From Spartobacteria bacterium (lineage in GTDB: Bacteria; Verrucomicrobiota; Verrucomicrobiia; Chthoniobacterales; Chthoniobacteraceae), in the NCBI GenBank assembly GCA_031389825.1, contig JANMSW010000048.1, positions 49,197-113,196 on the forward strand: 64,000 bases of DNA, given 5' to 3'. The notes under the pieces are model-generated. The model searched no databases, was not told the origin of the DNA, and saw only the letters and a program-made list of their open reading frames with translations. The position numbers and the translations under genes were made by a program. This document shows, piece after piece, positions 51 to 24,809 of the stretch. How positions within the stretch are numbered: position 1 is the first letter of the stretch; each line of letters starts with the position of its first letter.

Positions 51-347
51 TCAAATTGAATTAGGGCGAGTGTGGCTACCGAGCGTCAACTCCTTGGATG
101 GTGTAAGTTTCACTGAGACCTTATGGGTGGAAGAGGTATTCCGCGACCCCGTTAATGTATTGTCAAGGACCCACAGGTTTACCGATGTTCCGCCTTCGAC
201 GGTGCACGAGAGGGTTACTTCCAAGTCGATCGTGACCTCGCCCAGAATGAACTCTGGATACGTGGGGTCACGTGAATCGGTAGCTTTCTTGATCTCTCTC
301 TTTATGGCTGAGATCGCATCAGCGAGTGAAGGTTGCGAGTTGTGCAT
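51..347 (-). CDS. trypco2-like (trypsin-co-occurring domain 2) small protein
   Basis: 98-aa ORF. N-terminal helix SLADAISAIKREIKKA is followed by a beta-rich segment EVTIDLEVTLS...STHKVSVKLTP, matching the remembered layout of trypco2 family proteins. Overlaps the upstream same-strand ORF by 29 nt. Confidence 0.55.
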   Translation of the reverse strand: MHNSQPSLADAISAIKREIKKATDSRDPTYPEFILGEVTIDLEVTLSCTVEGGTSVNLWVLDNTLTGSRNTSSTHKVSVKLTPSKELTLGSHTRPNSI

Positions 348-1305: not shown

Positions 1306-1528
1306 TTCCTCGAAGACTGAAGTGGTAGATTGGTAGGGGCAATCGGAATCAGCTTGCCGAGAAATTCTACGAACTTTGAGGATCCGGGTTTTTGCGAGTA
1401 AGAACCTAACTCTATGACTCTTCGGAACTCACTTTTGGAGACTTCGGTCTTTGCTCGCGGAAGAGTCTCCGTTGTGGATGAAGGGGTGGATTTGCTGGCA
1501 CGCGATAGAGCTTCCTTGAGACCGAGCG

Positions 1529-2854
1529 ATGCTGCAGGCCGACCTGCAACCCGGAGCTAGGATCCTCGTTTTGACTTATAATCGCCCTCTTAGTGGGGAG
1601 CTGCGAGATCGCTTTAGCCGTCTTTGCCCGCGAGCTGCGGTCGAGTGGTCGACCTTCTATCAGTGGTGTCGTGAATTCAGCGGCGCTCGCTGGGAGATTA
1701 TTAAGCCGTGGGAGCGTGAGACCCTGATCCGCGAGTTGATCAGCAAGGATGCTTCTCTTTCAAGGCTGCCAGAGGACTTCATTGCTGAAGAGGTAGATTG
1801 GATTCGAGATCAAGCGATCGTGACAAGGCAGGAGTACTTGGACGTGCCCCGGCTAGGACGTAAGCGTCCCTTGAACGATGATCAGCGGAATGCCGTTTTC
1901 ACTCTCCTGGTGGCGTACTGTCGCGAATTGAAGCGGCGTGGCCTTGATGATTGGACAGGCGCTGCTTCCTCTGTGTGGCGGCAGGTAGATCGTGGATTGC
2001 TGAGCACACCCCTCTACGACTCGATACTCGTGGATGAAGCTCAGTTCTTCGCGCCTACCTGGCTTCGACTCATTCGCAAGGCTGTTCGCCCTAGCTCTGG
2101 GCAATTGTTTCTAGCGGCAGATCCAACTCAAGGGTTCCTCAAACGCAGACAGTCTTGGCTCTCGAGTGGGCTCAACGTTCGGGGCAATTCTGCGCGCCTG
2201 CTTCGCTGCTACCGAAACACCAGTGCAATCCTTGAGTTTGCCGGTAACTTCTACCGGAACCGTATACCGGCTGAGGAGCAAGAAATCAATCTGCCTACAG
2301 CAGAAGAATTCAAATCGCTCGAGTCGGGTGAAGCTCCTCAGCTAATCCGAGTTGATAGTGCGCAAGGAGAATGTGCGCGAGTCGTGAACGAGATCGTAGC
2401 GGCCTTGGGCTTAGGAGCAAATCCAGAGCATTTCCTCGTGCTCCAGAGTGACTCCACGATGGTCGAGTCCTTCATCAAACTCATCAATCGATCCTTCAAA
2501 CAGCCTATCGCCCGTGACCTCAAAGACTATACGACTGCGTCATCTGGGATGGTAAAGGTGAGTTCACTGAATGCTGCGACGGGCTTGGAATGCCCGGTTG
2601 TATCCCTCTGCGGCCTAGACTCATTACTTGAGCGGGAAGAGGCCATAGGATTGGACGGAGACCAGAAACATGAGCTGATTCGAGACAACACACGCCGAAT
2701 CTACATGGGTATCACCAGAGCAAGTCAGAAGCTGGTCATTACTTGCCGTAGCCTGAGCACCCAAGCAGCGTTCAAATCTTCCCGAAATCACCAGCTGCCT
2801 CAAGTTACCCCCGGATCCTCAAACGTTGCTCCCAGCGATTTTGCGAGCCTTTGA
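1529..2854 (+). pseudogene. SF1 UvrD/Rep-like helicase lacking motif I (N-terminally truncated)
   Basis: The ORF starts at motif Ia (ILVLTYNRPL). Later motifs are present: II (ILVDEAQFF), III (LFLAADPTQGF), IV (CYRNTSAI), V (NAATGLECPVV) and VI (IYMGITRASQKL). No GxGKT is found anywhere. An in-frame TGA lies at 1517-1519, and the other upstream frames lack a Walker A. Confidence 0.6.
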
Positions 2855-3294: not shown

Positions 3295-3327
3295 AAAAAA
3301 AAGCCCACCCGTACGGATGAGCTTTTT
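3295..3327. terminator. bidirectional Rho-independent terminator
   Basis: A8 run, then stem GCCCACCC, loop GTAC, stem GGATGAGC (two G-U pairs), then T5. On the minus strand this reads as hairpin plus T8, immediately downstream of the AAA+ gene stop at 3334. Confidence 0.6.
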
Positions 3328-3333
3328 GACTCC

Positions 3334-4830
3334 CTACGCCGCAATCTTCCGATGAGCTCGGGTAGATTGCAGTGTGGTAGCAGGTCTTGCTCTGCCGGTG
3401 GCCCAGGTCCGCAGCTCGCTCATTCGTTCCCCCATCAACTTCGAAAGGGGAACGAAGTCCACGAGCACCTCACCGATAGTGAGATCAGTTGGCTCCTGAT
3501 CTTGATCGAATCCGCGATACAGCGCCTCACTGAAAACCTGCTCGATCTCTGAGCCCGTGAAGGCTTCCGTGACCTTCGCCAGTTGCCGCAGATCGAAGTC
3601 GCAGGAATCACGATGGAACTTCTGGATCTGGATCGTCCAGATCGCTTCGCGCTCCTCCCGGGTGGGAAGATCCACGAAGAAGAGTTCATCCCAGCGTCCT
3701 TTGCGCAGCATCTCCGGTGGAAGCTGACTCACATCATTGGCGGTAGCCACGATGAAGACCGGAGCCTTCTTCTCCTGCATCCAGTAGATGAAGGAACCGA
3801 ATACCCGTGACGCAGTGCCACCATCAGTGGAGCCACTGCTCTTGCTTCCAGCAAACGCCTTCTCCAGCTCATCGAGCCAGAGCACGCAAGGTGCAATGGC
3901 TTCAGCAGTTTGGATCACCGAGCGCAGATTGGCTTCGGATTGACCCACGAGCCCGGCAAAGATGCGTCCAGCATCGAGCCTGAGTAGCGGGATCCCGAAC
4001 ACACTGGCTGTGGCTTTCGCTGCGAGGCTCTTCCCGCAACCAGGTACTCCAAGCATCAGGACTCCCTTGGGTGTGGGTAACCCGTACTCCACTGCGCGAG
4101 GGGTGAAAGCCTCCCTGCGCTTCAGGAGCCAGTCCTTGAGCTGATCCAATCCACCTATCGACGCCAGAGACTCGTTGCTTTCTACGAGTTCTAGGAGTCC
4201 ATTCTTTCGTACGGCCTGCGCCTTCTCTCTGGCGACCACCACTGGGCTGAGTTCCCCGGCTTCGATGACCGACAATGCAAAGGCATCTTCGGCTTCCCCA
4301 GTGGTCAATCCACGAGCTGCATCGATGAGTGCGGCGGTGAATACTTCATCCGGCTGTGGTTTGCCTGTGGATTCGACGATGCCCCTAAGGACCTGCTGCA
4401 GGGCGGAGGCGTCCGGCAGCGCGAAGTCGAGGACGGTGAACTCCCGTTCCAGCTCTGGAGGCAGCTTCAATCGACAGCCCAGCATGGCAATGGTCTTCCC
4501 ATGCAGCTTACCGGCCCGGAGTTGATCCCTCAAATTCCGGATGATGATCGGATTGGGATCATCAAGAAACGGCTGGAAGTCCCGCAGGAGAACCACCGTA
4601 TTCTCCGGTAGCTCCGCAATGATGCTCACCGCCTCCATCGGGTCCTGGCATCCTCTGGAAGCTCCGGTGCGGGTATCAATCAGACCTGCCGTCACGGACC
4701 AGGCAAAGAGCTGGTAGTTCAGGTGGTCGGCAATGGCTTTCAGTTCTGCTTCGACGCGTTGTTCCTCAGGCGAAACAAGGTAGAGTCCGGCGTACCCGGC
4801 TCTGATGTAGCGAGTGATCTTCTCTCTCAT
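3334..4830 (-). CDS. AAA+ ATPase, Ycf46-like architecture (N-terminal domain plus C-terminal AAA module)
   Basis: Walker A GVPGCGKS and Walker B VLWLDELEKAF. SRH-like region ATANDVSQLPPEMLRKGRWDE. Start taken at MREKITRY (ATG 4830), just after the stop of the upstream ORF (4845). Confidence 0.85.
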   Translation of the reverse strand: MREKITRYIRAGYAGLYLVSPEEQRVEAELKAIADHLNYQLFAWSVTAGLIDTRTGASRGCQDPMEAVSIIAELPENTVVLLRDFQPFLDDPNPIIIRNLRDQLRAGKLHGKTIAMLGCRLKLPPELEREFTVLDFALPDASALQQVLRGIVESTGKPQPDEVFTAALIDAARGLTTGEAEDAFALSVIEAGELSPVVVAREKAQAVRKNGLLELVESNESLASIGGLDQLKDWLLKRREAFTPRAVEYGLPTPKGVLMLGVPGCGKSLAAKATASVFGIPLLRLDAGRIFAGLVGQSEANLRSVIQTAEAIAPCVLWLDELEKAFAGSKSSGSTDGGTASRVFGSFIYWMQEKKAPVFIVATANDVSQLPPEMLRKGRWDELFFVDLPTREEREAIWTIQIQKFHRDSCDFDLRQLAKVTEAFTGSEIEQVFSEALYRGFDQDQEPTDLTIGEVLVDFVPLSKLMGERMSELRTWATGRARPATTLQSTRAHRKIAA

Positions 4831-4844
4831 GGTATGCAGTTGTC

Positions 4845-5069
4845 TTAGTGGTTGAAGTATTGATGTTCCCACGTGAGGCAGTTGGCGCGAGAGGCATCGG
4901 AGTAGAGGAGGTCGCCCTTTGCACCATGGACCTCCCATCGCTGGGTTTGCGGGTTGAACTCGATGGTGCCTGCCCGCTCCATCTCGAGTGGACCGATGGC
5001 CGTGAGATTAACGACTTCGGTGTAGAGCCCGTGCCCTGTGCCATCTGGCGTGAAGGTCAGGACGTTCAT
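4845..5069 (-). CDS. hypothetical 74-aa protein, translationally coupled in the AAA+ operon
   Basis: ORF overlaps the DUF2997 stop by 4 nt and ends 15 nt before the AAA+ start. No family recognised. Confidence 0.5.
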   Translation of the reverse strand: MNVLTFTPDGTGHGLYTEVVNLTAIGPLEMERAGTIEFNPQTQRWEVHGAKGDLLYSDASRANCLTWEHQYFNH

Positions 5070-5266
5070 GACCCAAGCTGCTGCTGCTGACTGGAAGTGC
5101 GGCGCTGGTGGTATTCGGGCTTCTTCTGCTTCTTTCCGACTACTCCCAATGCCTCCTCCAAGTACTCAGTAGCCTTCTCGCAATCGGCACCCTTGAAGCC
5201 AAGGGCATCAATCTGAATCTCACCCGTCGAGCGGATGGTGACTTCGATCGTGGGTTTACCGTTCAT
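5066..5266 (-). CDS. DUF2997-like small protein
   Basis: 66 aa. MNGKPTIEVTIRSTGEIQIDALGFKGADCEKATEYLEEALG matches the remembered DUF2997 pattern, and it sits in the usual position next to DUF1257. Confidence 0.55.
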   Translation of the reverse strand: MNGKPTIEVTIRSTGEIQIDALGFKGADCEKATEYLEEALGVVGKKQKKPEYHQRRTSSQQQQLGS

Positions 5267-5645
5267 GGTTACATGCCCCGATCACGAGTTTGATGGACCC
5301 ATCCTGCTGCGCTTTGCGCTGCACGAAGTGGCCGCGCTTCTTGGCTTCTCCGATGGTCTTGTAGACTCCGTAAAGCTGGAGCAAACGACCAAAGTTGGCT
5401 CCGACCTCTTTCTCGACATGCCCATCCCACCAGTCGGTAGTCAGGCCGTACGAGCCGTCGACGTTCTTCTGGAGGGCGACATCGTACGGGCCTTGAAGCC
5501 GTATGACGTAGTCTGCCTGGAGCTGGTTGTTGGCATATCCACGAGCAGTGGTGTTCTCCAGCAGCTCGAGTCCGAGTTCCTGGACTGCAGACTGCAGTGC
5601 CGTGGTGTCCCTGATTTGGGTGTGGATGGTGGTGAAATGACTCAT
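5256..5645 (-). CDS. DUF1257 (Ycf35-like) protein
   Basis: MSHFTTIHTQIRD...ALQSAVQELGLEL...YDVALQKN...YGLTTDWW is typical of DUF1257/Ycf35. Start taken at the internal ATG 5645. Overlaps DUF2997 by 11 nt. Confidence 0.6.
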   Translation of the reverse strand: MSHFTTIHTQIRDTTALQSAVQELGLELLENTTARGYANNQLQADYVIRLQGPYDVALQKNVDGSYGLTTDWWDGHVEKEVGANFGRLLQLYGVYKTIGEAKKRGHFVQRKAQQDGSIKLVIGACNHER

Positions 5646-5681
5646 GGGTTGGTTCCTTTCTGATTGTGGGTTGGAAATCAA

Positions 5682-5721
5682 AACGCCCGGCCCCCTTGAG
5701 TAGGGAAGGAGACCGGGCGTT
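5682..5721 (-). terminator. hairpin, possible terminator after the SWIM gene
   Basis: 9-bp stem AACGCCCGG/CCGGGCGTT with a 22-nt loop. The minus-strand reading is followed by TTTTGATTT. Confidence 0.35.
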
Positions 5722-5739
5722 CTTCTGGTGATGCGCTGG

Positions 5740-6048
5740 TTACAGCTGGAGCTTCCGTCGGCCTATCTCTCCGAAACGTTGCACCTGATGGGTTGAGGTA
5801 CCCGATCTGGCGACGGGTTGACTGGGGACAGCCTGCAGATCATGCATGCTGTGACAGTGGCGATTTGCAGTGCCGAGATGGACCGCTCGGGTGTGCTTGC
5901 AGCTGCGGGAGCCGTTTGCCGCCACGCGCAAGCGCCAGCCCGGACAATCACAGATTGTCCACCCGTCGGCGTAGAGGAGGGTCTGGTAGGGGCGGTTTCC
6001 CTTAGAGGACGCAAACGTCCAGCACTTGGATAACGCGGCAGCATTCAC
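5740..6048 (-). CDS. SWIM zinc-finger protein
   Basis: CDCPGW...(x14)...CKH fits the SWIM CxCxnCxH signature. Confidence 0.55.
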   Translation of the reverse strand: MNAAALSKCWTFASSKGNRPYQTLLYADGWTICDCPGWRLRVAANGSRSCKHTRAVHLGTANRHCHSMHDLQAVPSQPVARSGTSTHQVQRFGEIGRRKLQL

Positions 6049-6054
6049 GAGCTG

Positions 6055-7062
6055 CTACGCGGCGAGGTTGAACCTTCTGCGGCCAAGCTGACCGAAGTTC
6101 TGGACAAGGTCGGTGACATCCGCCTGGGACAGTTCTCGGGCTTTGTCGGCCAGCGCGGACAAACCCTGCTGAAGCTTCCGCTGTGCGCCACCGTTGTCTC
6201 GATACTCCGCGGCAGTGCGGGAGAGCAGTTCCTGACGCACGGCTTCGAGCTGATGCTCCATCGCCTGGTCGTTGGCGAAGTTCATCTGCTTGAACTGATC
6301 GATGAAGCGCACCAGGCGATTGAGAGTCTTCTGGTGCACGCCATCGGTTTTGCCGCTGTTGATGCTCTGGAGCATCTCCTCACAGAGAGTGGCAGTCTGC
6401 TCACGTAAGGATGCCACGCACTCCCCGACGAAGTTTTCCACATCACTGCGGATCTTTGTGCTGGCTTCTCGCACGGCATGTTGCCGGGCAGCGATCACCT
6501 CACGCTGTTCACTGAGGCTTACCAGATCAGTTGTCATCTCCTCTGGAAGAGCAATCTGGAAGAGGGTCATCTCGAAACCGAACTGCTTCTCCAGGGACAG
6601 CGGGAACGCGCCGGCAATGGCGGAGACGAGACGATCCGGATCGTTGACCAGCTTGTTGGCGACGGTGCGCCATTCCTCCATGGCTCTGGAGCGGTGCCTT
6701 GCGTAATGGGCTACGAATTCATCCTTCGCGTTCCAGAACTCGGATTCTAAGGCGCGGAGCTTGTCCGTGACCTCTCCCAGCTTTGAGTTTGGCAGGAAAT
6801 GGCCAAGGCCGTTAACGAAGGGGAAGGTGTTGGCGACGACGATGGCATGTGCCCGGCTCTCGATGAGTGCCAGGTCAGCAGTGGCATCTTTGGGAAGCAG
6901 GCGTTTGTGGCCGAGGCTGATCAGACGATCGGAAACGTCATCAGCATCGAGTCCCAGATCCTCAGCTTTGAGTTTCTTGCAGCCGCGCCAGAAGCGGACG
7001 CTGACGCTGATGAGCACGCCTTCGCGGCTGAGTACATCGAGTAGTGTGGAGTTGGAGTTCAT
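6055..7062 (-). CDS. DUF3150-like protein
   Basis: VLISVSVRFWRGCKKLKAEDLGL...LISLGHKRLLP...ESEFWNAKDEFVAHY matches the remembered DUF3150 N-terminal pattern. Start at MNSNSTLL (ATG 7062). Confidence 0.55.
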   Translation of the reverse strand: MNSNSTLLDVLSREGVLISVSVRFWRGCKKLKAEDLGLDADDVSDRLISLGHKRLLPKDATADLALIESRAHAIVVANTFPFVNGLGHFLPNSKLGEVTDKLRALESEFWNAKDEFVAHYARHRSRAMEEWRTVANKLVNDPDRLVSAIAGAFPLSLEKQFGFEMTLFQIALPEEMTTDLVSLSEQREVIAARQHAVREASTKIRSDVENFVGECVASLREQTATLCEEMLQSINSGKTDGVHQKTLNRLVRFIDQFKQMNFANDQAMEHQLEAVRQELLSRTAAEYRDNGGAQRKLQQGLSALADKARELSQADVTDLVQNFGQLGRRRFNLAA

Positions 7063-7086
7063 AGCTTGGTTTGGTTTGGGTGTAGG

Positions 7087-7121
7087 AAAAAAAAGCCCGC
7101 ACGCCGGTGAGGCGTGCGGGC
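7087..7121 (-). terminator. strong Rho-independent terminator
   Basis: Perfect 11-bp stem GCCCGCACGCC/GGCGTGCGGGC with loop GGTGA. Followed by T8 on the minus strand. Confidence 0.7.
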
Positions 7122-7365
7122 GTCGTGTTCTGCAGGGAAGCGTAACGCGGTCGCGCAACACCCTGTGTTGGTGGAGAAGCGATTGCTTTACGGTTTGAAC
7201 CGACGCTTACCGGACGGATGCAGGTGGCATCCTTTCTGCGAGGAATGAATACTACACTGCTTGGACGTCCGTCCTCCGCCCACTGTCATTCTTGAGCACC
7301 GAATAGAAATGGTCCGGAAAAAATTCGGGGAGCGAACACAGCACGCCGCTCAAGTTGACCGAGCT

Positions 7366-8730
7366 TCAGAACGCTTCTCCTTTGCCACCAAACATCAGGA
7401 TTAGATGAGCAAAAGCTTTTGCGAGTCTTTGTGCGTCCATTGACGACAGTGTGCCAGTAATGCTCAGCACGCATTGACTGCGTGGGGTTGCTTGGGTCGA
7501 GAACACACCATCCGGAGTGCTCCTGACCTCGTAAGCAGTGAGCAGTGGCTGTCCATTGAAAGCCTCCAGTAAGATGCGGCCTCTTTCCACGACCTCGTAA
7601 TTAAACTGGCGGCTTTCGGTCTCGTAGCGAACCTTCGCGTTTAGGTCGGCAGGGTTGAAGAGAATCGTTTCCCCCTCGCCGTCGCCTTCCGCTTGGAGCG
7701 AGCGTACGATCATCTTCCGAGATTTTTCACCGTAGCCCAATTCCTTGTAGGGGGCGAGCTTCGCATTGATGAACGCCAACGTCTCTTGATAGGAGGGGCC
7801 TACAAGTGGGTTGGGAGGAACCACTTCAATGAAACGGTCAGTGTTGCATTGCAATTCCCCCCACCGTTTGCCGCTGGCAATCTCCATTGCCTCGGATGCC
7901 GCCGCTTCGTGGGCCCGTTGTACAACCATTTGCTCCTGCTCCTTTTTGGTTAGCTCTCTTCCAGGAACAGGTGCAATGCGAGGACCGGGCGCTGCGGTGG
8001 GCGCGGGACCAGGAGCAACGAGGGACGTAGCCGCGGCATTGTCGATGGCGGCAAGCAGCGAGCGATGTTGCTGCTCACTTGTTGATACCGCCTCCCTGGC
8101 CGCCGAATCCATCTGGTCTGCCTCTTTCCGCATCTGTGCGGCACGAACTTGGTTGGAAGTGTCATTCGGGCTTAGCGGATTAGGGCGATCAACGTTGGCC
8201 GCGTTCTTCCGTAGCCGGTCTGCAGCGGCTGTGACTTGTGCGAGCGCCGCCTTTGAGGCGGTCATTCGCTGCTTCGCAACCATGAGGTCGGTGACGGCTT
8301 TCTGCAGCGCCACTATCTGTGGCCTCGCACGGTCGGCGCGAGGTGCCCGCGCCAGGATGGCGCTCGCCTGATCCAGATTCCCTGCCCGCACGGCAGCAAT
8401 GGCGTCCTTTTGGAGCTTCTGAATGTCCCCGAGAACGAGGGCAATCGAGTCTTCCGGAACCCAAATAGCGATGGATTTGCCATCCTTGGATTTTTCCATC
8501 AGGAACACTCTTTTGTCCCGGTGAGCCAGCACCCGGAAGACTTCGCCTTGCTTAGCAGTGCGTAGCGGCTCTTCCCGGAAGTGGAGGGGGACGGACCTGG
8601 TCACGGTGACGCTATCTCCTTCTTCAAACGATGCTTCTGTGGTGATGGGGCTCAAGGCCACCGCTAAAGTGGCCGCGATGATGCTCGGCCAACCAACTCC
8701 CGGCGAGCGGGAGAATTCTGTACAGTTCAT
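7366..8730 (-). CDS. secreted or membrane-anchored coiled-coil protein, unknown function
   Basis: Start at MNCTEF. Hydrophobic signal-like segment WPSIIAATLAVALSPITTEA, a helical Ala/Gln-rich middle and a Pro/Ala linker. Confidence 0.5.
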   Translation of the reverse strand: MNCTEFSRSPGVGWPSIIAATLAVALSPITTEASFEEGDSVTVTRSVPLHFREEPLRTAKQGEVFRVLAHRDKRVFLMEKSKDGKSIAIWVPEDSIALVLGDIQKLQKDAIAAVRAGNLDQASAILARAPRADRARPQIVALQKAVTDLMVAKQRMTASKAALAQVTAAADRLRKNAANVDRPNPLSPNDTSNQVRAAQMRKEADQMDSAAREAVSTSEQQHRSLLAAIDNAAATSLVAPGPAPTAAPGPRIAPVPGRELTKKEQEQMVVQRAHEAAASEAMEIASGKRWGELQCNTDRFIEVVPPNPLVGPSYQETLAFINAKLAPYKELGYGEKSRKMIVRSLQAEGDGEGETILFNPADLNAKVRYETESRQFNYEVVERGRILLEAFNGQPLLTAYEVRSTPDGVFSTQATPRSQCVLSITGTLSSMDAQRLAKAFAHLILMFGGKGEAF

Positions 8731-8862
8731 GATTAATTTTCGTTGGTTTGTTTCTGAGGATGAGAGCCCTGGCCGCTGGAATCTCCCGGAGCACAACTGT
8801 TCCCGAACGGGAACACATAGAGTGCGCCTGCGGCGGTAACGTCAAGTTCCCAACCCGGAACA

Positions 8863-9135
8863 ATGAAGAACGTGCGCAACCTAGTCGGCCCGCAGATCCG
8901 GCGGGTGCGCACGTTGCAGGCGCTCACTCAAGACGATCTTGCGGCAAAGCTTCAGCGTTGTGGCTGGGACGTGAGCCGAGTCTCGGTGGCCAAGATCGAG
9001 GCTCAGCTCCGCTGGGTTGCTGACTGCGAGCTTTATCTGCTCGCCCACGTCCTTGGTGTTTCGATCCAGGAGCTCTTTCCGCCCCTCAAGGAGGTGCGGA
9101 GCTTCCTGGGCTCGCCCGGGTCGAAGCGCAACTGA
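8863..9135 (+). CDS. XRE-family helix-turn-helix transcriptional regulator
   Basis: IRRVRTLQALTQDDLAAKL...VSVAKIE is a classic Cro/C1-type HTH. It is the only plus-strand gene inside the island. Confidence 0.75.
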   Translation: MKNVRNLVGPQIRRVRTLQALTQDDLAAKLQRCGWDVSRVSVAKIEAQLRWVADCELYLLAHVLGVSIQELFPPLKEVRSFLGSPGSKRN

Positions 9136-9195
9136 GTTGCGCCTCGACGATAAGGCACGGGTGAATCCGTGCATCCTGCAAGGTGGGCCAGATGC

Positions 9196-9642
9196 TCAGA
9201 TCAATCCCGCTTCCCGGAAAGAGAAGTGAGATTCGCCCACGATCACATGGTCAAGCATCTGGATCTGCAGGAGCTTGGCCCCTTCGTTGATCTTTGAGGT
9301 CAATCGCCTGTCGCACTCACTGGGAGCCGTGTCACCCGAGGGATGATTGTGGACCAGAATGAAGGCGTAGGCGGCGAGCGCGATTAACGGCCGGAAGATC
9401 TCCCGGGGATGCGCAATGGATTCGTTGAGGGATCCGATGCTCACCAAGTTGACGCCTTTGATGTGGTACTTGGTGTTAAGCCCGAAGACATGAAGGTGCT
9501 CCTTCTCCTGATCGTACTGAGGGCTGTTGCTGATATGCTGCCGGTAGTAGGTGGCGACAAGCTCGGGTGTATCCAGCCGCACTCGTGGGAGCGGTTCTCC
9601 GACGCGCACCACCTGAATGTAGGAGGAGTAGTTTCCTCGCAT
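9196..9642 (-). CDS. RadC-like JAB metalloprotease domain protein
   Basis: HPREIF...ILVHNHPSGDTAPSECD...LDHVIV is the RadC/JAB signature. Start at MRGNYSS (ATG 9642). Confidence 0.85.
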   Translation of the reverse strand: MRGNYSSYIQVVRVGEPLPRVRLDTPELVATYYRQHISNSPQYDQEKEHLHVFGLNTKYHIKGVNLVSIGSLNESIAHPREIFRPLIALAAYAFILVHNHPSGDTAPSECDRRLTSKINEGAKLLQIQMLDHVIVGESHFSFREAGLI

Positions 9643-9897
9643 GAGCTGCTCCTTTCTGGGGTTTTGCTCCTCCACGCTGAGGAGCGCTGTTCGATGGAGG
9701 CAAAGGAATGAGCCGGATACATCCAATGAGTAAGGTGTATCCGGCTCGGTGTTTCCGTCGCAAAAATGGAAGGCTAGGGGCTGCGGTGGTCCGAATCCGG
9801 AGCGCACCTGATTCCCTTACCCTTGTTCGGGTCCACCCGAAGAAGTTGGGCACCCGGACGAGAAATCGCTGTCCGGGCTGCCGCCTGACCAATCTGC

Positions 9898-11412
9898 CTA
9901 GAGCTTCACGTTCTGCAGGCTGCGCAACGTGGTGCGCACCGACTGGAACTCGCGTTCCGTGGTCCGCTGCTCCCGCTGGAGGAGCTTGAGTTTGCTGCCA
10001 AGATCCTTCAGTCCGGTGAGCCCGTCCTGAAGGAAGTCTTTCAGCGAGTCGATGAGTTCGAGTGCTTCATCGAGCTTCGCTCCTTTCTGCGATGGGGGAG
10101 TCGTACTGTGGTCGGTTGACCCAGTAGCTGCTGGTTCGTCCTTCATTGATGAGTCTAGGATGTGTGTTGCGTCCGCCGTGTGGGCGGTCGCAATGGGTTG
10201 TTGGTTTTCCTGAGCGGGGCCGTGCTCATCGGAGCTCGGCTCGGTGGGTTCTGAGCCTGCGGTGCTGGGGGCTGACGGTGGGGGCACCTCGGCCCGGACC
10301 GGCATGACGATCATCCGCCTGCCTCCGCTGCTGAAGACGAGTGGTGACATGGCATCGATGAGATCCACGGCAGCGAGACCGAACTTCAGGGCTTTGGTCA
10401 GGATCTCGCGGTTCAGGAACGTGATTAATGGGCCGCCGATTACGTCGATCGCGGGCACCTCCACTTTGGTCCAGTACTCGGCAGTTTGAGATTTGCCGAG
10501 CAGCCGTACCTTCCCGCCCTCTACTTCGATGCCAATCGAGGCATTCACCGAATCATGACTGGGCATGCGCTGGATGGTCTGCAGGACCTGTTCGATGGCT
10601 TCCGCCTGGAGGTCGAAATGGATCTTCATTTCATCGCCGCGTGGGATCACTTGCCGCCAGTTGGGATAATTCCCGTCAATCTCCCGAGTGATAAACCGCC
10701 AGCGGCGCGTGCTGATCTGGATGTCCGCAGCCTGGGCGTAGTTTAGTCTCGCGGTCTTTAGCTGCCATTCACCGTCCTGGTTGAACTCCTTCCACTTCAG
10801 AAAGCGGTGGCTTCGCAGGATTAGCGATTTTTGGAGCGCAACCGAGAACGAGTTGCTGCTATAGAGGTGGCGACCGTCAGTGCCGACGACGTGGTGATAT
10901 TTCTCGTCACTGACGTCGAGGTATGCGCCGTTGAGCACGTAGCGGGTTTCATCGGTGCTTGAACAGTCGATTGCCTGGTGAAGTGACAGCCTGAGGGCTT
11001 CCGGTAGTGGGATGGCCTCCCCTTTGATCCGGGGGATGAGAGGGAACTCCTCGGGCTTCCCGGTTTCGATCTTCTGCTCGGCGAACTGATGACCGATGGC
11101 ATGCCGGATCGAGACGGTCGTGTCGTCGAGGCGTTCGACGAGGATCTGCTCATCTTTTCCACACGACTTCACGGTCTTCGCCAATGCATCGTACGGGACC
11201 AGCAGAACTTCGGGTGTCCCGTTGGTCGGTTGCTCCAGTCGCACCGTAGCGAAGGTATCGAGATCCGTGACGGTGAGGGTGATCCAACCATCGGTAGTAC
11301 GCTCGACCTTGATGGTACTGAGCACGGGGAGGCTGGATTGTTTGTTGAGGACTTTTCCGAGTCCAACGAGTGCGGGTTTTAGTTCCGCGACGGGTAGAGC
11401 GATAGAGTTCAT
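9898..11412 (-). CDS. DNA polymerase III beta sliding-clamp homolog with ~130-aa C-terminal extension
   Basis: N-terminus LKPALVGLGKVLNKQSSLPVLSTIKVE...LTVTDLDTF resembles DnaN. A clamp-length body is followed by a low-complexity Pro/Ser/Thr segment and a helical tail. Confidence 0.7.
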   Translation of the reverse strand: MNSIALPVAELKPALVGLGKVLNKQSSLPVLSTIKVERTTDGWITLTVTDLDTFATVRLEQPTNGTPEVLLVPYDALAKTVKSCGKDEQILVERLDDTTVSIRHAIGHQFAEQKIETGKPEEFPLIPRIKGEAIPLPEALRLSLHQAIDCSSTDETRYVLNGAYLDVSDEKYHHVVGTDGRHLYSSNSFSVALQKSLILRSHRFLKWKEFNQDGEWQLKTARLNYAQAADIQISTRRWRFITREIDGNYPNWRQVIPRGDEMKIHFDLQAEAIEQVLQTIQRMPSHDSVNASIGIEVEGGKVRLLGKSQTAEYWTKVEVPAIDVIGGPLITFLNREILTKALKFGLAAVDLIDAMSPLVFSSGGRRMIVMPVRAEVPPPSAPSTAGSEPTEPSSDEHGPAQENQQPIATAHTADATHILDSSMKDEPAATGSTDHSTTPPSQKGAKLDEALELIDSLKDFLQDGLTGLKDLGSKLKLLQREQRTTEREFQSVRTTLRSLQNVKL

Positions 11413-11451
11413 GGTTGTTTCTCCTTTTCTTGGGTTGGGTGAAGAAACGAG

Positions 11452-11487
11452 ACAGCCCGCAGATCCAATGAAGGACGTGCGGGCTGT
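11452..11487 (-). terminator. hairpin, possible terminator upstream of the clamp gene
   Basis: 10-bp stem ACAGCCCGCA/TGCGGGCTGT with a 16-nt loop. The minus-strand reading is followed by a T-rich tract. Confidence 0.35.
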
Positions 11488-11526
11488 TCGTCTCGAGGTT
11501 TGACTGCGGGGAGGGTGTTTCCCCAG

Positions 11527-11769
11527 CTATTCTGTGGTGGCGTAACTGCGTCCGAGGTGGTCGAAGTAGCGACCTGTGTCGCAAAGGGTACAGGGTTCTT
11601 TTGGGAAACGGGCTTTCACCTGTTTCTGGTACTCCAATGCCTTCTGCTTGTTGCCGAAGCTGCGGTCGAAGAGCCCTGCTTCCGCGGCGGTCTCGGGAGG
11701 CATGACGCACCACCTGAACTCATTGCGGTAGCGCCGCGGTGGTTCCGGCGCGGGTCCAATCGCTGTCAT
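11527..11769 (-). CDS. hypothetical 80-aa protein coupled to the ligase gene
   Basis: ATG at 11769 overlaps the ligase stop as ATGA. No family recognised. Confidence 0.4.
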   Translation of the reverse strand: MTAIGPAPEPPRRYRNEFRWCVMPPETAAEAGLFDRSFGNKQKALEYQKQVKARFPKEPCTLCDTGRYFDHLGRSYATTE

Positions 11770-12821
11770 GCTGCCTTGTACTTGAGCTGCCCCGTGGTGC
11801 ATTCCTCGGCGGCAATGTCATCTCGCACGCCCAGGTAGACCGGCTGGTAGATGGAGCCGCTCTCCGGAAACGCGTAGAGGAAGCGGACCTCCACAACTTG
11901 CCCCGCTTGGGGGAGCTCATGGTTCGGAGGAATGGTGACGTTTCCGGCGTTCACCGCCTTGTCACCCGTGAAGAGAGCCAGTGAGACGCTGCGCTTGGCA
12001 TTTACTTTGGTCACGATGAACGAGGCAGTCTCGCAGAACTTGTACTTAAGCTGCGAACCACCGGTATTGGGTCTGCCTGCGGTGTACAGAGCCTTGGCCC
12101 CCTTGAGCACCACTCCTTCAGCGCTCCGAGCTTTCAGCTGGTCGAAGATCTCCCGCTTTTCCTCTGGTGTGCAGGCGGTGAGTACGCGCCTGATCGATGG
12201 ATGCTCGAAGTCTGAGAGCAGCTTGTACAAACGCCCGGAGCGTCGGTGAAACCATTCTCCCCGCAGATCCTTTCCATTAACGGCCAACAGATCGAAAGCG
12301 TGGAAGATCTCTCCAATGACCTCGCCGTCCATCAGGAAGTCTTCAGCGCAACGTAGCGCGTCATCCACCAATGGCTGTGGAAGCGCAACGGTGAGGCCGA
12401 GCCGGTTAATCCCGGTGATCACTGGACCTTCCTTGCGGATGAGCAGTCGTTTGCCGTCGAACTTCTCCTGCATCCAAAAATCTGGATCGTTGATGAGCTG
12501 TTCGACTTGAGCTTCCTCCACAGGATTAAGCAGCTGACAGTGAATGCCGGCGTTTTGGCTCTCCTTGTCTGTGTGCTGGTAGGGAGTGCCATCCTCGCCT
12601 GGCGTGTAACCTTTGGCCTGCTTCTCCTGGATAAGCTTATCGAAAATCGCCTTCGCTTTCTCCAGATCTACTGGTGTCTGGGTCTTGCTGCCGGTGGACA
12701 GGGTGCTGCCTCTGCGGCCATACGCATAAACGACGACGTAGCCGTTCCCTTGTGGCTCGATGCGGGCTTGGTAAACTTTGTCTGAGGCTCCCTGCCGGTA
12801 GTAGAGGGTCGTGTTGTTCAT
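11766..12821 (-). CDS. WGR domain fused to ATP-dependent DNA ligase
   Basis: N-terminal WGR-like LYYRQGASDKVYQARIEPQGNGYVVVYAYGRRGS. Ligase motif I EKFDGKR, then FLMDGEVIG, FHAFDLL and EGVVLKG. Confidence 0.85.
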   Translation of the reverse strand: MNNTTLYYRQGASDKVYQARIEPQGNGYVVVYAYGRRGSTLSTGSKTQTPVDLEKAKAIFDKLIQEKQAKGYTPGEDGTPYQHTDKESQNAGIHCQLLNPVEEAQVEQLINDPDFWMQEKFDGKRLLIRKEGPVITGINRLGLTVALPQPLVDDALRCAEDFLMDGEVIGEIFHAFDLLAVNGKDLRGEWFHRRSGRLYKLLSDFEHPSIRRVLTACTPEEKREIFDQLKARSAEGVVLKGAKALYTAGRPNTGGSQLKYKFCETASFIVTKVNAKRSVSLALFTGDKAVNAGNVTIPPNHELPQAGQVVEVRFLYAFPESGSIYQPVYLGVRDDIAAEECTTGQLKYKAA

Positions 12822-12869
12822 GTGAGTTCCTTTTGGGTTGAGATTGAAGGCTCGTGTTGAGCTGGTGGG

Positions 12870-13283
12870 TTATCGGCGGAATCTGCCGCGGAAGTGAGCC
12901 ACCACGATGGTGATCACGTAGAACGCCACGAGCGCGGCGATCGTGAAGACGATGAGTCGCCCGGCGATGGTGACCAGGAAGGCCAGCCAGGTTGCAATCT
13001 GCCAAAGCAGCACGGTCACGAGCGGCACCACAAGCACGCTGGGAATGAGCAGAACCGACCAGATTTTGCCGTTCAACTTGCACCATTCCCGCAGTGTCCC
13101 ATTGGGCGAAAGCCACCACTCCAGTGACAGCAGGGTGTAGCGAAACACCTCCGCCGCTCTCTGAAGCCCGCTGAGTTGTGCCAGGTCCGGGTCCACGGTC
13201 GGTGACGTAAGAGGCTTTCGTTTCCAGTGCCGCTGCCACAGCTGCCTGTGCCATCCGCAAGTGTCCCTCTGCGGATCATTCAT
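12870..13283 (-). CDS. membrane protein (three predicted TM helices at the C-terminus)
   Basis: Hydrophobic runs SVLLIPSVLVVPLVTVLLW, IATWLAFLVTIAG and IVFTIAALVAFYVITIVVA. Start uncertain (13283 or 13313 or 13349). Confidence 0.45.
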   Translation of the reverse strand: MNDPQRDTCGWHRQLWQRHWKRKPLTSPTVDPDLAQLSGLQRAAEVFRYTLLSLEWWLSPNGTLREWCKLNGKIWSVLLIPSVLVVPLVTVLLWQIATWLAFLVTIAGRLIVFTIAALVAFYVITIVVAHFRGRFRR

Positions 13284-13557
13284 GGGGCGAGGAGGCTTGG
13301 GTGCGCCGTGCATGAGCTCGGCGGGTGTGTGAGCCAAGGATGGTCCCAACGATCAGCAGGCTGACGCAGCCAATGGCGAGCGCACTGGCTCTGAGCTGCC
13401 AGATCTCGGCGTTTTGCCGCTCCTTTTCGAGCTGCTCTTTGGCTTCGATAAGCAGCTTCTCCTCTTTGTTGTCGAACCAGCCGGCATTCACCGGCCCTGC
13501 GGTAAGGAGAAAGAGGAGAATGAGCAGGAGGATTCTTCTTTGATGTTCTTTGTTCAT
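13276..13557 (-). CDS. small signal-peptide / TM protein
   Basis: N-terminal ILLLILLFLLTAGPVNA, a coiled segment, and a second TM ALAIGCVSLLIVGTILG. Confidence 0.5.
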   Translation of the reverse strand: MNKEHQRRILLLILLFLLTAGPVNAGWFDNKEEKLLIEAKEQLEKERQNAEIWQLRASALAIGCVSLLIVGTILGSHTRRAHARRTQASSPHE

Positions 13558-13586
13558 GGTATGGGTCAGGGGTTGAGATGAAGAAA

Positions 13587-13622
13587 GGGCCGGACTCCAT
13601 CCTGCGGGATGAAGACCGGCCC
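13587..13622 (-). terminator. hairpin, possible terminator after the nuclease gene
   Basis: GGGCCGG...CATCC TGCG GGATG...CCGGCCC forms a nested stem. The minus-strand reading is followed by TTTCTTCATC. Confidence 0.4.
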
Positions 13623-13685
13623 TACTTTTGCATTTGGTTCGCCCACCGGGGGCGGGAATCCCCGGTCAATCCGGGGACCTATGGG

Positions 13686-14522
13686 TCACGGCCAGCGGCG
13701 GCACTCGTTGAAGTACTCGCAGCTTGAGCACTGCATTCCTGGACTGGGAATCCAGTCGCGTTGCTCCAGTCCATGGAGGTAGCTCTCCATGGAGCGGAAG
13801 AGCCGGGTCTGCTGCTGCTCGCTCATCGGCTCCAGTGCCGTGATGATTAATCTCGGGTTCTTGGTCTTCACCAGGTGATGCAGCTCGATGCCTAGCTCCC
13901 GGGTGCCAGTGGCGGCGCGGTACAGCACTGCGTAGCTACTGGTCTGGACCTCGGTCGTGTGAGCGACCTTCTCCGGATTGGGCGTCTGGGAACTACTCTT
14001 GAAGTCAATGATCCGGCCCTGCTGGACCAGATCAATGACTCCAACCAGTGTCGGCAGCCCGTGTTCCGACAAGTCAGCCTCCACAGGGACTTCCACCGCG
14101 TCGGGCTTTACCTCCGCCGGAATGTTGGATTCACGGAAGTAGGTCTCCAGCAGCCGCCAGCCGACCGCTTTCTGCTGTGCTTCGTCTCCGGGCTCCCAGT
14201 CGATTGGCTCCTTGCCGTCTGCGTCCCAGACAAGCCCGTACACGGTATGGAGCTGTTTTAGACTGAGGAGCTGATCCTTCCAACGCGACTTGTTCCAGAG
14301 CTTGAGCACCTCATGGAGGCAGCTCCCGACGTGGAGGGCTGGCGTGCGGGGTTTCTCCACTTCGCAAACGTACCGGAAGTAGAACTTCAACCGGCATCTC
14401 AGGAATGTGCTCAGCCGTGAGGCGGAGACTATTTGCTGAAGGCCATGGATCAGCTCCGGCTCGGTGCGCTGTCTGGTTGCGAGTTCGCGGGGTGGGGAAG
14501 CAGCTTCGGAGAGCGCGATCAT
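13686..14522 (-). CDS. PD-(D/E)XK nuclease, Cas4/AddB-like with Fe-S cysteines
   Basis: N-terminal Cys in FLRCRLKFYF plus C-terminal CSSCEYFNEC (Cx2Cx5C). Nuclease core VGVIDLV...GRIIDFKSS. Confidence 0.75.
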   Translation of the reverse strand: MIALSEAASPPRELATRQRTEPELIHGLQQIVSASRLSTFLRCRLKFYFRYVCEVEKPRTPALHVGSCLHEVLKLWNKSRWKDQLLSLKQLHTVYGLVWDADGKEPIDWEPGDEAQQKAVGWRLLETYFRESNIPAEVKPDAVEVPVEADLSEHGLPTLVGVIDLVQQGRIIDFKSSSQTPNPEKVAHTTEVQTSSYAVLYRAATGTRELGIELHHLVKTKNPRLIITALEPMSEQQQTRLFRSMESYLHGLEQRDWIPSPGMQCSSCEYFNECRRWP

Positions 14523-15076
14523 GACCGTGCGGGTGGATTGCGCCAGCGACTCCCTCTGCTGTTGCTCTGCTTTCCCACTTTCTCCAGCAACTCTTCAATT
14601 AGCTGTGAGGCCTGCATTTTGTTGCATTCCTTCACGCCGACGCGAAAGAGCTGCTGCGCCATCGCCTCAATCTCGGCTTTATCGAGCTGGTGCTCGTTGA
14701 CCACGCGGAGGATTAGACCGCGTTGGCCGTCGGTGCAGTTCCACTGGCCGTCCAGCCGCTGAGTGCGATGGCCGTTCGTGCCGTTAGTACCATGAGTGCC
14801 GTTCGCTCGCGTGCTGGTACCATTGTTGACGTGGGCACCGTTCCTGGGCGCGAGGCCATTACTGTCGCCGATCCCATAGGTGGTGTCGGGCATGAATCCC
14901 ACCTTCTGGATCTCGGCATCAACTGAGGTTTGCAACAGAGTGTAGAGCCTGCTCGATTCCGCTGCGACCTGACTCAGGTCGCTGACTTCGACTTGAACGG
15001 AGACGGAGCAGCAGTGGGAAGAGAACTGGGGAAGACCCAGCTTTTTGGTGTAATTGATGGATAAGGTGACTGCCAT
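14519..15076 (-). CDS. hypothetical protein with Asn/Gly/Thr-rich linker
   Basis: Start at MAVTLSINY (ATG 15076). Its stop overlaps the nuclease start by 4 nt. Central NGTSTRANGTHGTNGTNG low-complexity tract. Confidence 0.5.
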   Translation of the reverse strand: MAVTLSINYTKKLGLPQFSSHCCSVSVQVEVSDLSQVAAESSRLYTLLQTSVDAEIQKVGFMPDTTYGIGDSNGLAPRNGAHVNNGTSTRANGTHGTNGTNGHRTQRLDGQWNCTDGQRGLILRVVNEHQLDKAEIEAMAQQLFRVGVKECNKMQASQLIEELLEKVGKQSNSRGSRWRNPPARS

Positions 15077-15840
15077 GGTAAGGTTCGCGTTTTGCGTTGT
15101 GGGATGTGGAAACGAAAAAGCCCGACCGGGAAGGGTTGGGCGTTCAGGTGCTGGTTGTAGGATCAGAGTGCTCCGGGCTAGCCGTTGGAGGAGAGTTCCG
15201 CCGGACAACTACTCGGCGGCTCACCATTGTTGGCGTTCTAGAGGCAGCGGCCCGGGGTTGGGCGCATGATTGCGGCCAGTTGAAGGCGCCTTTGGTCACG
15301 GCATGTGACGAAGGAAGGAGACGGCTACCGACTGGCAGCTAAGCCTTCCCTATAAGATTATGGTCGGAATCAGCCCGAAAGAAGACAGCGAGACGTGCCT
15401 TTCGCTCCAAAGTTCCGCCTGACTGACGGGGTAGACGACCATGAGGCGGTCGGGTTCCGCCGTGCTCCTCCTGACTACACAGCGAGGGTACCCGATCGAT
15501 AGGATTAACGGGAGGATACTAGCGACGCTGCCGTGGCCGCGCATCGCTCTCAATCGCTCGCCTTCGAAATCAGGGAGTTATCACAATCCCTGACGCAGGT
15601 CGCAAATCTCAACCCTTACGTTCAGAAAGGTTTACGCTTATAAAGCAAGAGACATCAACCTCATCCGTCCGCCGCACGAGCGGGAAGTTTCACGAACGAG
15701 AGCTCTCGCTCAATGGAGTGCTGAACAGCAAGTGGGGGTGAGGTGACGGTTTGTCACCGTTCTGTCACCAAAGAAACGGGAAGCAAACGTCAGGAAGAGC
15801 TGGAACGCTGTATATGAGCCACTCTTCAGCCTTCGAAGAA

Positions 15841-15917
15841 TGGCGGAGCCTACGGGACTCGAACCCGCAACCTCTGCCGTGACAGGGCAGCGCTCTGACC
15901 AATTGAGCTAAGGCTCC
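15841..15917 (-). tRNA. tRNA-Asp (anticodon GTC)
   Basis: The reverse complement folds as a cloverleaf: acceptor GGAGCCT/AGGCTCC, D arm GCTC..GAGC, anticodon stem CTGCC/GGCAG with loop CTGTCAC, T arm GCGGG TTCGAGT CCCGT. Discriminator G and encoded CCA. Confidence 0.95.
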
Positions 15918-20169: not shown

Positions 20170-20258
20170 AGCACGGATGGCGGACGCGATCAGAAAATTT
20201 GGAGAGCGCTGGTCGGGAGTTGATTGCGTGGGAACCGCCCGAGGACGAGAACCCAGGG

Positions 20259-24694: not shown

Positions 24695-24809
24695 CTCCGG
24701 GTTCCCATGGGCGTGCGGGTTGTAACAGCGTCCACCGATGCTTCGAGGGAATTCGGCGCTGGGTTTGCGCTTCCGCCCCGGCCACCCTTATCGTACGCGC
24801 CCCGTCTGC

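Follow-up and report, generated by a model that had tools for sequence, protein, structure and literature searches.

A block of genes at about positions 3295–15136 of a 64,000-nucleotide stretch of DNA from a Spartobacteria bacterium (GenBank assembly GCA_031389825.1, contig JANMSW010000048.1, positions 49,197 to 113,196 of the forward strand; this whole stretch is called the window below) is a defined module that recurs across Verrucomicrobiota, a description that suits it better than that of a miscellaneous island. Rather than a conserved chromosomal operon, it is mobile-element DNA of horizontal origin. With moderate confidence it is taken to be one copy of a recurrent module of Verrucomicrobiota integrative islands, placed directly downstream of the 3' end of a tRNA-Asp gene, with a putative role in break repair or establishment of the element, with cargo continuing to the left and with an integrase that has been lost or lies distally. 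The module is abundant, and no description of it was found in the literature searched. An interpretation made earlier from the letters of the DNA, called the sequence-only reading below, had seen a replication/repair island at this place and is supported in part.

Recurrence and gene content of the module

Homologues of the tailed beta-clamp paralogue encoded in the block numbered at least 738, at about 50% identity and nearly all from Verrucomicrobia. Homologues of h229, the first protein of the block, numbered at least 736, and the h229 family comprised 847 clusters at 50% identity. Eighty metagenome loci were retrieved by alignment of the clamp homologues (these and other loci are given L numbers where they need to be told apart), and gene order was worked out by placing the window proteins on these loci and grouping all of their open reading frames (ORFs) into clusters. 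The order recurs in several genomes as well, and the module was seen in more than 80 unrelated contexts. Half A of the module has a fixed order: c6 (a 70-aa, ribbon-helix-helix-like protein), h229, a Cas4-like nuclease, small membrane ORFs, a WGR-fused ligase, the clamp, a 67-aa ORF and DUF932. In about 13 loci it is followed by half B, made up of DUF3150, SWIM, DUF1257, DUF2997, a 74-aa protein and an AAA+ ATPase. The h229 and nuclease genes were neighbours in 38 of 39 loci, and the flanks on both sides of the module were unrelated from locus to locus. A single complete genome (Verrucomicrobiota sgz303538, GCA_054456655.1) carries three copies, at about 2.29, 6.28 and 6.66 Mb, two of which share at least 2.5 kb more past the AAA+ gene at 87% nucleotide identity. 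Between the window and its closest copy, nucleotide homology spans exactly 15076 to 3374.

Several variants of the module were observed among the loci. The c6 gene, whose product has the pattern YSPxIxRxLVxxLYHEAKxRxIPMTxL and was judged ribbon-helix-helix-like by eye, precedes h229 in 12 loci (e.g. L135 6246–6458 and L115 6178–6390); no c6 gene or remnant was found in the spacer of the window copy or elsewhere in the window. DUF932 follows the clamp in 31 loci (e.g. L133 3518–4327), and the window copy is without DUF932 and has RadC in that place. In L085, the closest sibling copy, a gene for an IS66-family transposase (RNase_H_2 and DDE_Tnp_IS66 domains, 902 aa) occupies 11771–14479 between the clamp and RadC, and this copy is also without the Cas4-like nuclease. 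A large minus-strand ORF downstream of the module in L115 contains 108-nt tandem repeats (19115–20551, at least 13 units, 60–79% identical).

Domains were assigned by Pfam, PHROG and NCBIfam profile searches of the window proteins. The sequence-only reading had counted seventeen minus-strand ORFs broken by one XRE gene; the layout and the XRE gene (8863–9135, plus strand, the sole break in the minus-strand run) stand, and the count obtained here is about 16 minus-strand genes, including the small genes at 4845–5069, 11527–11802, 12870–13349 and 13276–13557, all four of which have homologues in the same position in sibling loci. Most of its domain calls were likewise recovered by Pfam. The exception is the SWIM gene at 5740–6048, which had no Pfam match and is assigned by its CxC...CxH signature. 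The calls of a Cas4-like Fe-S nuclease and a WGR-ligase agree with the four-cysteine pattern and the KxDG motif present in the respective proteins. The features of the block, in the direction of the minus strand, are as follows.

15077..15136, minus strand: conserved leader 5' of h229 with a short hairpin and a T-run after it (CCCGGTCGGGCTTTTT), kept in sibling loci
14519..15076, minus strand: h229, 185 aa, uncharacterised family; its stop overlaps the nuclease start (ATGA, 14519–14522)
13686..14522, minus strand: Cas4-like PD-(D/E)XK nuclease; Pfam PDDEXK_1, E 7.5e-27, with a four-cysteine signature
13276..13557, minus strand: small signal/transmembrane protein, 93 aa; same position in 18 loci
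12870..13349, minus strand: small protein with several transmembrane segments, start uncertain; same position in 35 loci
11766..12821, minus strand: WGR-fused ATP-dependent DNA ligase; Pfam WGR and DNA_ligase_A_M, KxDG motif
11527..11802, minus strand: small ORF, 91 aa, between ligase and clamp; weakly conserved, 3 loci
9898..11412, minus strand: divergent beta-clamp paralogue with a tail; DNA_pol3_beta N-terminal and central domains
9196..9807, minus strand: RadC-like JAB protein, JAB domain only; likely start 9642
8863..9135, plus strand: XRE/HTH_3 regulator, divergent from h476
7366..8796, minus strand: h476, N-terminal hydrophobic segment, no domain match; C-terminal region common to 4 other loci; variable cargo
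7095..7121, minus strand: strong terminator-like hairpin, 11-bp stem followed by T8, between h476 and the DUF3150 unit
6055..7062, minus strand: DUF3150 protein, 335 aa (Pfam); longest ORF 6055–7161, true start 7062 from the identical public protein P0241
5740..6048, minus strand: SWIM-type zinc-finger protein by motif only (CDCPGW...SCKH); same position in 7 loci
5256..5645, minus strand: DUF1257 protein (Pfam); longest ORF to 5681, likely start 5645
5066..5266, minus strand: DUF2997 protein (Pfam)
4845..5069, minus strand: conserved 74-aa protein; 9 loci
3334..4830, minus strand: AAA+ ATPase, classical (Cdc48 D2-like); Pfam AAA (PF00004) and AAA_lid_3; longest ORF to 4938, likely start 4830
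3295..3322, minus strand: terminator-like hairpin followed by T8, just past the AAA+ stop

The shorter starts given for DUF1257 (5645), AAA+ (4830) and RadC (9642) were suggested by homology to the closest sibling. The hairpins at 3295–3322 and 7095–7121 imply that the block contains more than one transcription unit. The XRE and h476 genes form a variable cassette within the module: L172 has an HTH_3 gene and two GYF_2 genes at that place, and L085 and L174 have nothing there.

The nuclease has one N-terminal cysteine and a C-terminal C-x2-C-x5-C cluster, both conserved throughout the family, and it also matches the PHROG "exonuclease" families phrog_69 and phrog_1218, from which an exonuclease activity is predicted. 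In the clamp, residues 1–375 form the clamp proper and are followed by a low-complexity linker and a conserved helical tail of about 130 aa. The N-terminal domain of the AAA+ protein is specific to its family (phrog_8638). The sequence-only reading had placed the products among the accessory families of plasmids, phages and integrative and conjugative elements (ICEs), and this assignment is borne out by matches on plasmids and in phage and by NCBIfam scores below housekeeping level: the matches of clamp, nuclease, ligase, RadC and AAA+ all lie far under the curated housekeeping cut-offs. Matches to well-characterised housekeeping families, which would have refuted the sequence-only reading, were thus not obtained. 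The clamp scored 74.6 bits against the dnaN equivalog (cut-off 137.65), and the ligase 66 bits against the nonhomologous end-joining (NHEJ) ligase model (cut-off 228).

Two identities were rejected on this basis. The clamp is not the chromosomal replicative DnaN, a protein of about 370 aa with no extension, from which it differs by its score under the cut-off and by the tail conserved across its family. Nor is the block a bacterial NHEJ system (Ku and LigD): Pfam scans of the window proteins gave no Ku domain, and the ligase falls far under the NHEJ ligase cut-off.

Locus, horizontal origin and the absent integrase

The tRNA-Asp(GTC) gene was located at 15841–15917 on the minus strand by ARAGORN and Rfam (73 bits), and its 3' end (15841; GGTTCGAGTCCCGTAGGCTCCGCCA) faces the minus-strand gene block that runs from 15076 down to 3334, as had been read from the sequence. 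The spacer between them measures 632 bp from the longest ORF start (15208), in agreement with the earlier figure of about 630 bp without a convincing ORF, and 764 bp from the ATG at 15076, where the identical public protein P0121 starts. The spacer and the genes to its left that lie outside the block are listed here.

15137..15840, strand not applicable: unique spacer of about 700 bp; the equivalent slot in sibling L174 holds integrase and regulator genes
51..2854, both strands: left flank with defence-like genes and a lower content of guanine plus cytosine (GC), 0.51–0.54
51–347, minus strand: Trypco2 protein, 98 aa; Pfam E 4.6e-17
319–1305, minus strand: 328-aa partner protein, no domain match; the Trypco2 ORF overlaps its end
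1529–2854, plus strand: UvrD-type helicase fragment; matches only positions 238–545 of the 559-position PADLOC NERD+UvrD model

Within the spacer (15137–15840) no conserved ORF, Rfam family, integrase remnant, c6 gene or similarity to any sibling was detected, and Rfam gave no structured RNA there besides the adjoining tRNA. A conserved leader of 40–60 nt 5' of h229 is still retained in the window copy. A sigma-70 promoter scan returned 0 sites, a result that is uninformative for Verrucomicrobia.

To the right of the tRNA lies a gene for a FAD-oxidoreductase/halogenase-like protein, the best matches of which (up to 75% identity) are in Chthoniobacter-like Verrucomicrobiota metagenome-assembled genomes; the host is a Chthoniobacter-like Verrucomicrobium. 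The alignment with relatives that the sequence-only reading had proposed as a check was carried out. The tRNA-Asp/oxidoreductase junction is kept without the block in 14 relatives, all of them distant, and none of the 14 has island proteins within 10 kb of it; within 10 kb of the oxidoreductase, island proteins were found in none of 80 relatives. Going leftward, the window and the relatives are similar in nucleotide sequence as far as the tRNA 3' end (about 15804–15841), and beyond it the relatives all have different neighbours (RtcB, integrase, glycosyltransferase, XylR, acetate kinase, HlyD); in one relative a tyrosine integrase adjoins the tRNA-Asp. The relatives show that the block is not conserved at this locus, yet they give no clean empty site.

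The same comparison bears on the idea that the block is a domesticated accessory DNA-repair operon of Verrucomicrobia, no longer mobile and beside the tRNA by chance. All of its genes are intact and well conserved (the DUF3150 proteins are 64–84% identical), this copy is without an integrase or attachment (att) site, its GC content is near that of the core, and undescribed repair functions have been proposed for WGR-ligases (PMC7470946). A host operon of this kind would nonetheless have to be reconciled with three copies in one genome and unrelated flanks between loci, with siblings that adjoin integrases and tRNAs, with the absence of the block at this locus in relatives and with the presence of its parts on plasmids and in phage, and it is considered rather improbable.

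Some sibling copies are accompanied by an integrase. L174 has core genes, then tRNA-Thr, a tyrosine integrase gene, an AAA_15/AAA_21 gene, a pair of small genes and the module; L173 has integrase, XRE, an ImmA-like gene, Beta_protein, a P4 cII-like gene, the module, DUF932 and a type I restriction-modification (R-M) system. In five further loci, tyrosine integrases belonging to two families were found close by, upstream of the module in some and downstream in others. Where the integrase is upstream, it and its regulators lie about 0.3–5 kb from h229, and in L174 they stand between the tRNA and h229. Two siblings have the integrase downstream of the module. In L115, c6 and h229 come straight after tRNA-Leu and, as in the window, there is no intervening integrase. 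About 6 tRNAs occur near sibling modules in about 735 kb, which is close to chance; the oriented adjacency of tRNA and module in L115 and in L174 is the only informative kind of proximity.

In agreement with the sequence-only reading, which had noted no recombinase, capsid, terminase or type IV secretion system (T4SS) gene in view, Pfam and tblastn searches gave no signal for an integrase, T4SS, capsid or terminase in the 64 kb window, and five integrases from siblings and relatives used as tblastn queries had no match in it. No second copy of the tRNA 3' end was found in the window with 16–25-nt pieces and 2–3 mismatches, and a general repeat search of the window gave no long direct repeat. 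Two explanations are offered. Either a deletion removed the segment with the integrase and regulators, and the module stayed behind immobilised, though intact and presumably useful, or the layout is like that of L115, with a recombinase at the distal end past the left window edge. The upstream integrase slot is empty here, which favours loss or rearrangement; the tRNA-then-module order of L115 without an integrase, together with the two siblings that have a downstream integrase, makes a distal integrase a possibility as well.

The nature of the carriers was surveyed by Pfam scans pooled over 78 ORFs from upstream flanks and 107 from downstream flanks. In upstream flanks GYF_2, integrase and trypsin recur, and in downstream flanks R-M methylases, DEAD/ResIII helicases, AAA_21, SMC_N, type ISP enzymes, Mrr and Czc-type efflux recur. 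A tblastn search for T4SS components (VirB4, VirB11, TraF, TraH), made with proteobacterial queries of limited sensitivity, gave no match either in the window or over 927 kb of sibling loci, and no T4SS, coupling protein or relaxase was among the recurrent flank families, no search having been aimed at relaxases. The clamp family had no homologue on PLSDB plasmids. An ICE identity was rejected, on the missing T4SS match with these proteobacterial queries and the missing PLSDB homologues. The carriers resemble integrative genomic islands that bear defence and resistance cargo, and not prophages; nor are they demonstrable ICEs.

A replication module of an episomal (plasmid-like) or conjugative element, with its transfer and replication genes outside the window, deserves little credence. 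The clamp and ligase are functions of the replisome type, a PrimPol-D5 primase-helicase is encoded 5 kb upstream in L085, and DUF932, RadC and DUF3150 are typical of conjugative elements. Against this, the conserved module contains no polymerase, helicase, primase or initiator, for which reason the word "replication" in the earlier description is not retained; PrimPol-D5 occurs in only one of about 49 flanks, and the T4SS and PLSDB searches above were negative.

A decayed prophage or phage satellite, the second of which had been among the options of the sequence-only reading, would account for the tRNA beside the block, for the PHROG families that match AAA+, DUF1257, DUF2997, clamp, ligase and exonuclease, and for the 32% identity of the AAA+ protein to Corndog gp96. 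It is nevertheless very improbable, as the clamp family, with more than 700 members, gave only 3 weak matches (23–25% identity) in the 2.9 million contigs of IMG/VR, no neighbouring structural genes were seen, and no capsid, terminase, portal or tail family was found among the recurrent flank families or in the window.

On the side of the block away from the tRNA, GC content is 0.51–0.54 over the left 3 kb, as compared to 0.58–0.60 in the module and 0.60–0.63 in the core. The Trypco2 protein and its 328-aa partner resemble a conflict-system effector pair. The partner has, by eye, a His...Cys pattern (VVGHVD...WWLACNT) that recalls caspase-like peptidases. The helicase at 1529–2854 is, from its partial match, likely a truncated defence gene that is missing its NERD N-terminus. 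The lower GC content and the defence-like genes fit cargo that continues past the window edge, and the left flank (51–2854) is probably such island cargo.

Further to the right of the tRNA and oxidoreductase are core genes: a full-length UvrD/PcrA (24738–26885, separate from the helicase fragment), Mur ligase, CCA/polyA polymerase, MutS and LepA. Adjoining the oxidoreductase is a gene for a 472-aa ankyrin-repeat protein (17796–19214, minus strand); further right, the product of a minus-strand gene at 22088–24694 has 868 aa and a PATR (autotransporter passenger) repeat. Neither gene is syntenic with the relatives. A cobalamin riboswitch at 50058–50257 on the plus strand (Rfam 46.3 bits, exceeding the gathering score) precedes a 446-aa ORF at 50109–51449.

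Predicted roles of the two halves

The preferred reading, that of a module of integrative islands with a break-repair or establishment role, draws its functional part mainly from half A. The overlap of the h229 stop with the nuclease start (14519–14522) and the adjacency of the two genes make up a two-component recombinase layout, as in Exo/Bet or RecE/RecT. h229 had no Pfam, NCBIfam or PDB sequence match, and a profile search of 1.84 billion representatives gave same-family proteins only among the matches listed. Its structure was modelled with AlphaFold2 (AF2) from 47 sequences (mean predicted local distance difference test score 69; about 75–91 by 10-residue block in the ordered domains). 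The model has an N-terminal beta-beta-alpha domain of about 60 aa, a disordered Asn/Gly-rich linker and a C-terminal three-helix domain. Its best fold matches in the PDB were all the lambda Red-beta C-terminal domain (probability 0.96–0.97, target-normalised template modelling (TM) score 0.70–0.76, root-mean-square deviation about 2 Å), in structures of complexes with lambda exonuclease or with the tail of the single-stranded DNA-binding protein (SSB). Among the best viral fold matches are proteins with the name of ERF-family annealing proteins (E 7.6e-5 for an unnamed protein and 4.4e-3 for phage Kumao ERF).

WGR-ligases are known only through sequence surveys (PMC7470946). The ligase of the block is 48–52% identical to genes on Tsukamurella and Mycobacterium (actinobacterial) plasmids, and on an Acidisarcina plasmid a WGR-ligase stands in the row ArdC-like, ParB, WGR-ligase. 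Just before the C-terminal end of the ligase and after motif VI (11766–11800) is the sequence EC-x3-QLK[YF][KR], of which QLK[YF][KR] is present in 42 of 43 family members; this motif, here QLKYK, is a candidate clamp-binding peptide.

Taken together, these features suggest the following scheme for half A. The Cas4-like nuclease would resect the ends of breaks in the element's own DNA, while h229, translationally coupled to it, would anneal single strands or pass them on. The ATP-dependent ligase would be brought to nicks by its WGR domain and seal them, and the tailed clamp paralogue would tether these enzymes on DNA. Half A might thereby allow the element to recombine, to survive restriction or CRISPR cuts, or to close itself after entry or excision.

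Half B is defined by the six genes given above. DUF3150 is mostly helical and is 64–84% identical over more than 100 homologues. The AAA+ protein is of the classical Cdc48 D2-like unfoldase type, not MoxR, and has full-length homologues at 32% identity in Mycobacterium cluster O phages (e.g. Corndog gp96). In Aeromonas phage HJ05 (L176 5016–8121) genes for a DUF1257 homologue (E 1e-20) and for a 67-aa protein like DUF2997 come after the AAA+ gene, and a plasmid of Candidatus Manganitrophus carries JAB, a hypothetical gene, AAA, DUF1257, DUF2997 and DUF3150 near ParB and a PRTRC cassette (trio at L001 12842–14937). AAA+, DUF1257 and DUF2997 (3334–5645 in the window) are thus a unit common to phage, plasmid and verrucomicrobial islands. 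The DUF2997 proteins share the pattern G[FK]xGxxC...AT...LE.ALG. RadC/JAB and half B form a second, separately terminated unit, with half B as the possible counterpart of the MoxR-DUF3150-VWA trio that adjoins ssb-bet-exo on IncC/SXT-type conjugative elements.

Just upstream of the module in L172 (4552–7277) are a ThiS-like ubiquitin-fold gene and a gene for a VWA and ADP-ribosylglycohydrolase protein. The ThiS-like gene and the PRTRC (ThiF-related) cassette of the Manganitrophus plasmid may point to a link with ubiquitin-like conjugation on mobile elements.

The module can also be read in the opposite sense, as being itself an anti-phage or anti-plasmid defence system, or two such systems, lying in a defence island, with either the nuclease, ligase and clamp or the AAA+/DUF1257/DUF2997/DUF3150 unit acting against invaders. 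The downstream neighbours of the siblings are mostly defence genes, Trypco2 and NERD/UvrD-like genes adjoin the window module, GYF_2 and trypsin genes recur in the upstream flanks, and the AAA+ domain matches IetA/IteA models. PADLOC, however, gave no complete known system, and the IetA match is to the generic AAA core (81.6 bits, far under the cut-off of 510 bits) with IetS absent. The same genes are carried by a plasmid, next to ParB/PRTRC, and by a phage genome of lytic type; DUF932, RadC, the ArdC-linked ligase and DUF3150 are families associated with plasmids and conjugative elements; and a ligase suits repair more than attack. Defence as the function of the module itself is considered unlikely.

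Several points weigh against the island-borne repair module preferred here. For this copy, no integrase, att repeat, excision or transfer genes are visible in the window, and its mobility is therefore deduced from the siblings only. The relatives are distant (no more than 75% amino acid identity) and share only the tRNA and oxidoreductase with the window, which makes the "empty site" comparison a weak one, and the GC content of the module is little different from that of the core. The assignment of h229 as a single-strand annealing protein (SSAP) is a fold likeness of small domains, with PDB E-values of about 0.5 and global TM scores of about 0.25–0.3, and no sequence-level link to SSAPs was obtained from PHROG searches on 47 members, hhalign against lambda Bet or Pfam searches on longer members. 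The module has no SSB gene and encodes no clamp loader or polymerase, and the contacts of the clamp with its partners are putative. DUF3150 had generic helical matches and no others, both in a PDB sequence search and by Foldseek with its AF2 model.

A more specific version of this reading is put forward tentatively. Half A could be a previously undescribed, self-contained break-repair machine of islands, consisting of a 185-aa annealer, a Cas4-like nuclease, a nick-sensing WGR-ligase and a tailed clamp, and serving as an element-encoded analogue of PCNA/Dna2/ligase I against host nucleases. In addition, the AAA+/DUF1257/DUF2997 trio, with or without DUF3150 and SWIM, may represent another new system of mobile elements, one whose task is to remodel or unfold a protein of the host or of the element. 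Testable roles follow for several orphan families (WGR-ligases, DUF3150, DUF1257, DUF2997 and h229), and the module marks tRNA-linked islands of Verrucomicrobia with defence and metal-resistance cargo.

Comparison with known systems

The island itself is ordinary biology, and the module belongs to no named system tested. With tRNA-targeting tyrosine-integrase islands, the locus has in common its position at the tRNA 3' end, its accessory and defence cargo and, in siblings, the order tRNA, integrase, module; it differs in that this copy is without an integrase or flanking direct repeat within the window. The AAA+ core is similar to that of IetAS (AAA+ IetA, protease IetS), whereas the N-terminal domain and the partners differ, there is no IetS partner and the score is far under the cut-off. 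Identity with IetAS was rejected on the generic core match and the missing protease.

Lambda Red (Exo/Bet) and RecET share with half A a small protein that adjoins an exonuclease and is translationally coupled to it, and in the model the three-helix C-terminal domain of h229 can be superposed on its Red-beta counterpart, a domain that binds both lambda Exo and SSB. There is, however, no detectable sequence homology, the N-terminal domain of h229 is of about 60 aa, and gene order and nuclease family differ.

In eukaryotes and archaea, PCNA acts with Dna2/Fen1 and the ATP-dependent ligase I in clamp-tethered processing of nicks. Half A likewise combines a sliding clamp, an Fe-S nuclease of the Cas4/Dna2-type PD-(D/E)XK class and an ATP-dependent ligase; the clamp here is of the bacterial beta type, and the conserved QLKYK tail of the ligase is a candidate clamp-binding motif.

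The closest known analogue of the module is the host-defence-evasion (hde) operon ssb-bet-exo of IncC plasmids and SXT/R391 ICEs, together with MoxR-DUF3150-VWA. On IncC and R391, ssb-bet-exo repairs CRISPR-made double-strand breaks during conjugative entry (PMC7498323) and promotes recombination between elements (PMC2786100). In MOBH (IncC-like) plasmids, DUF3150, with a MoxR ATPase on one side and a VWA protein on the other, comes directly after ssb-recT-exo, and in pCAV1857-208 ssb-recT-exo immediately adjoins MoxR-DUF3150-VWA. Both arrangements would pair an element-borne annealing-type protein with an exonuclease of the PD-(D/E)XK superfamily and follow the pair with a unit of AAA+ plus DUF3150. 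The nuclease here, however, is Cas4-like (PDDEXK_1, four cysteines) and not of the lambda-Exo/YqaJ type, and the putative annealer has 185 aa and no sequence similarity to RecT, Red-beta or ERF. The AAA+ protein is Cdc48-like and not MoxR, no VWA protein was found by Pfam, and SWIM, DUF1257 and DUF2997 are present. The host element seems integrative, with no T4SS seen, unlike the IncC/SXT elements. With no SSB gene and with a WGR-ligase and a tailed beta-clamp added, the enzyme set of the module is different and larger. If the reading is correct, it extends the repair of an element's own DNA against host defences, so far documented for ssb-bet-exo of IncC/SXT, to a poorly studied phylum and a new enzyme set of ligase, clamp and Cas4-like nuclease.

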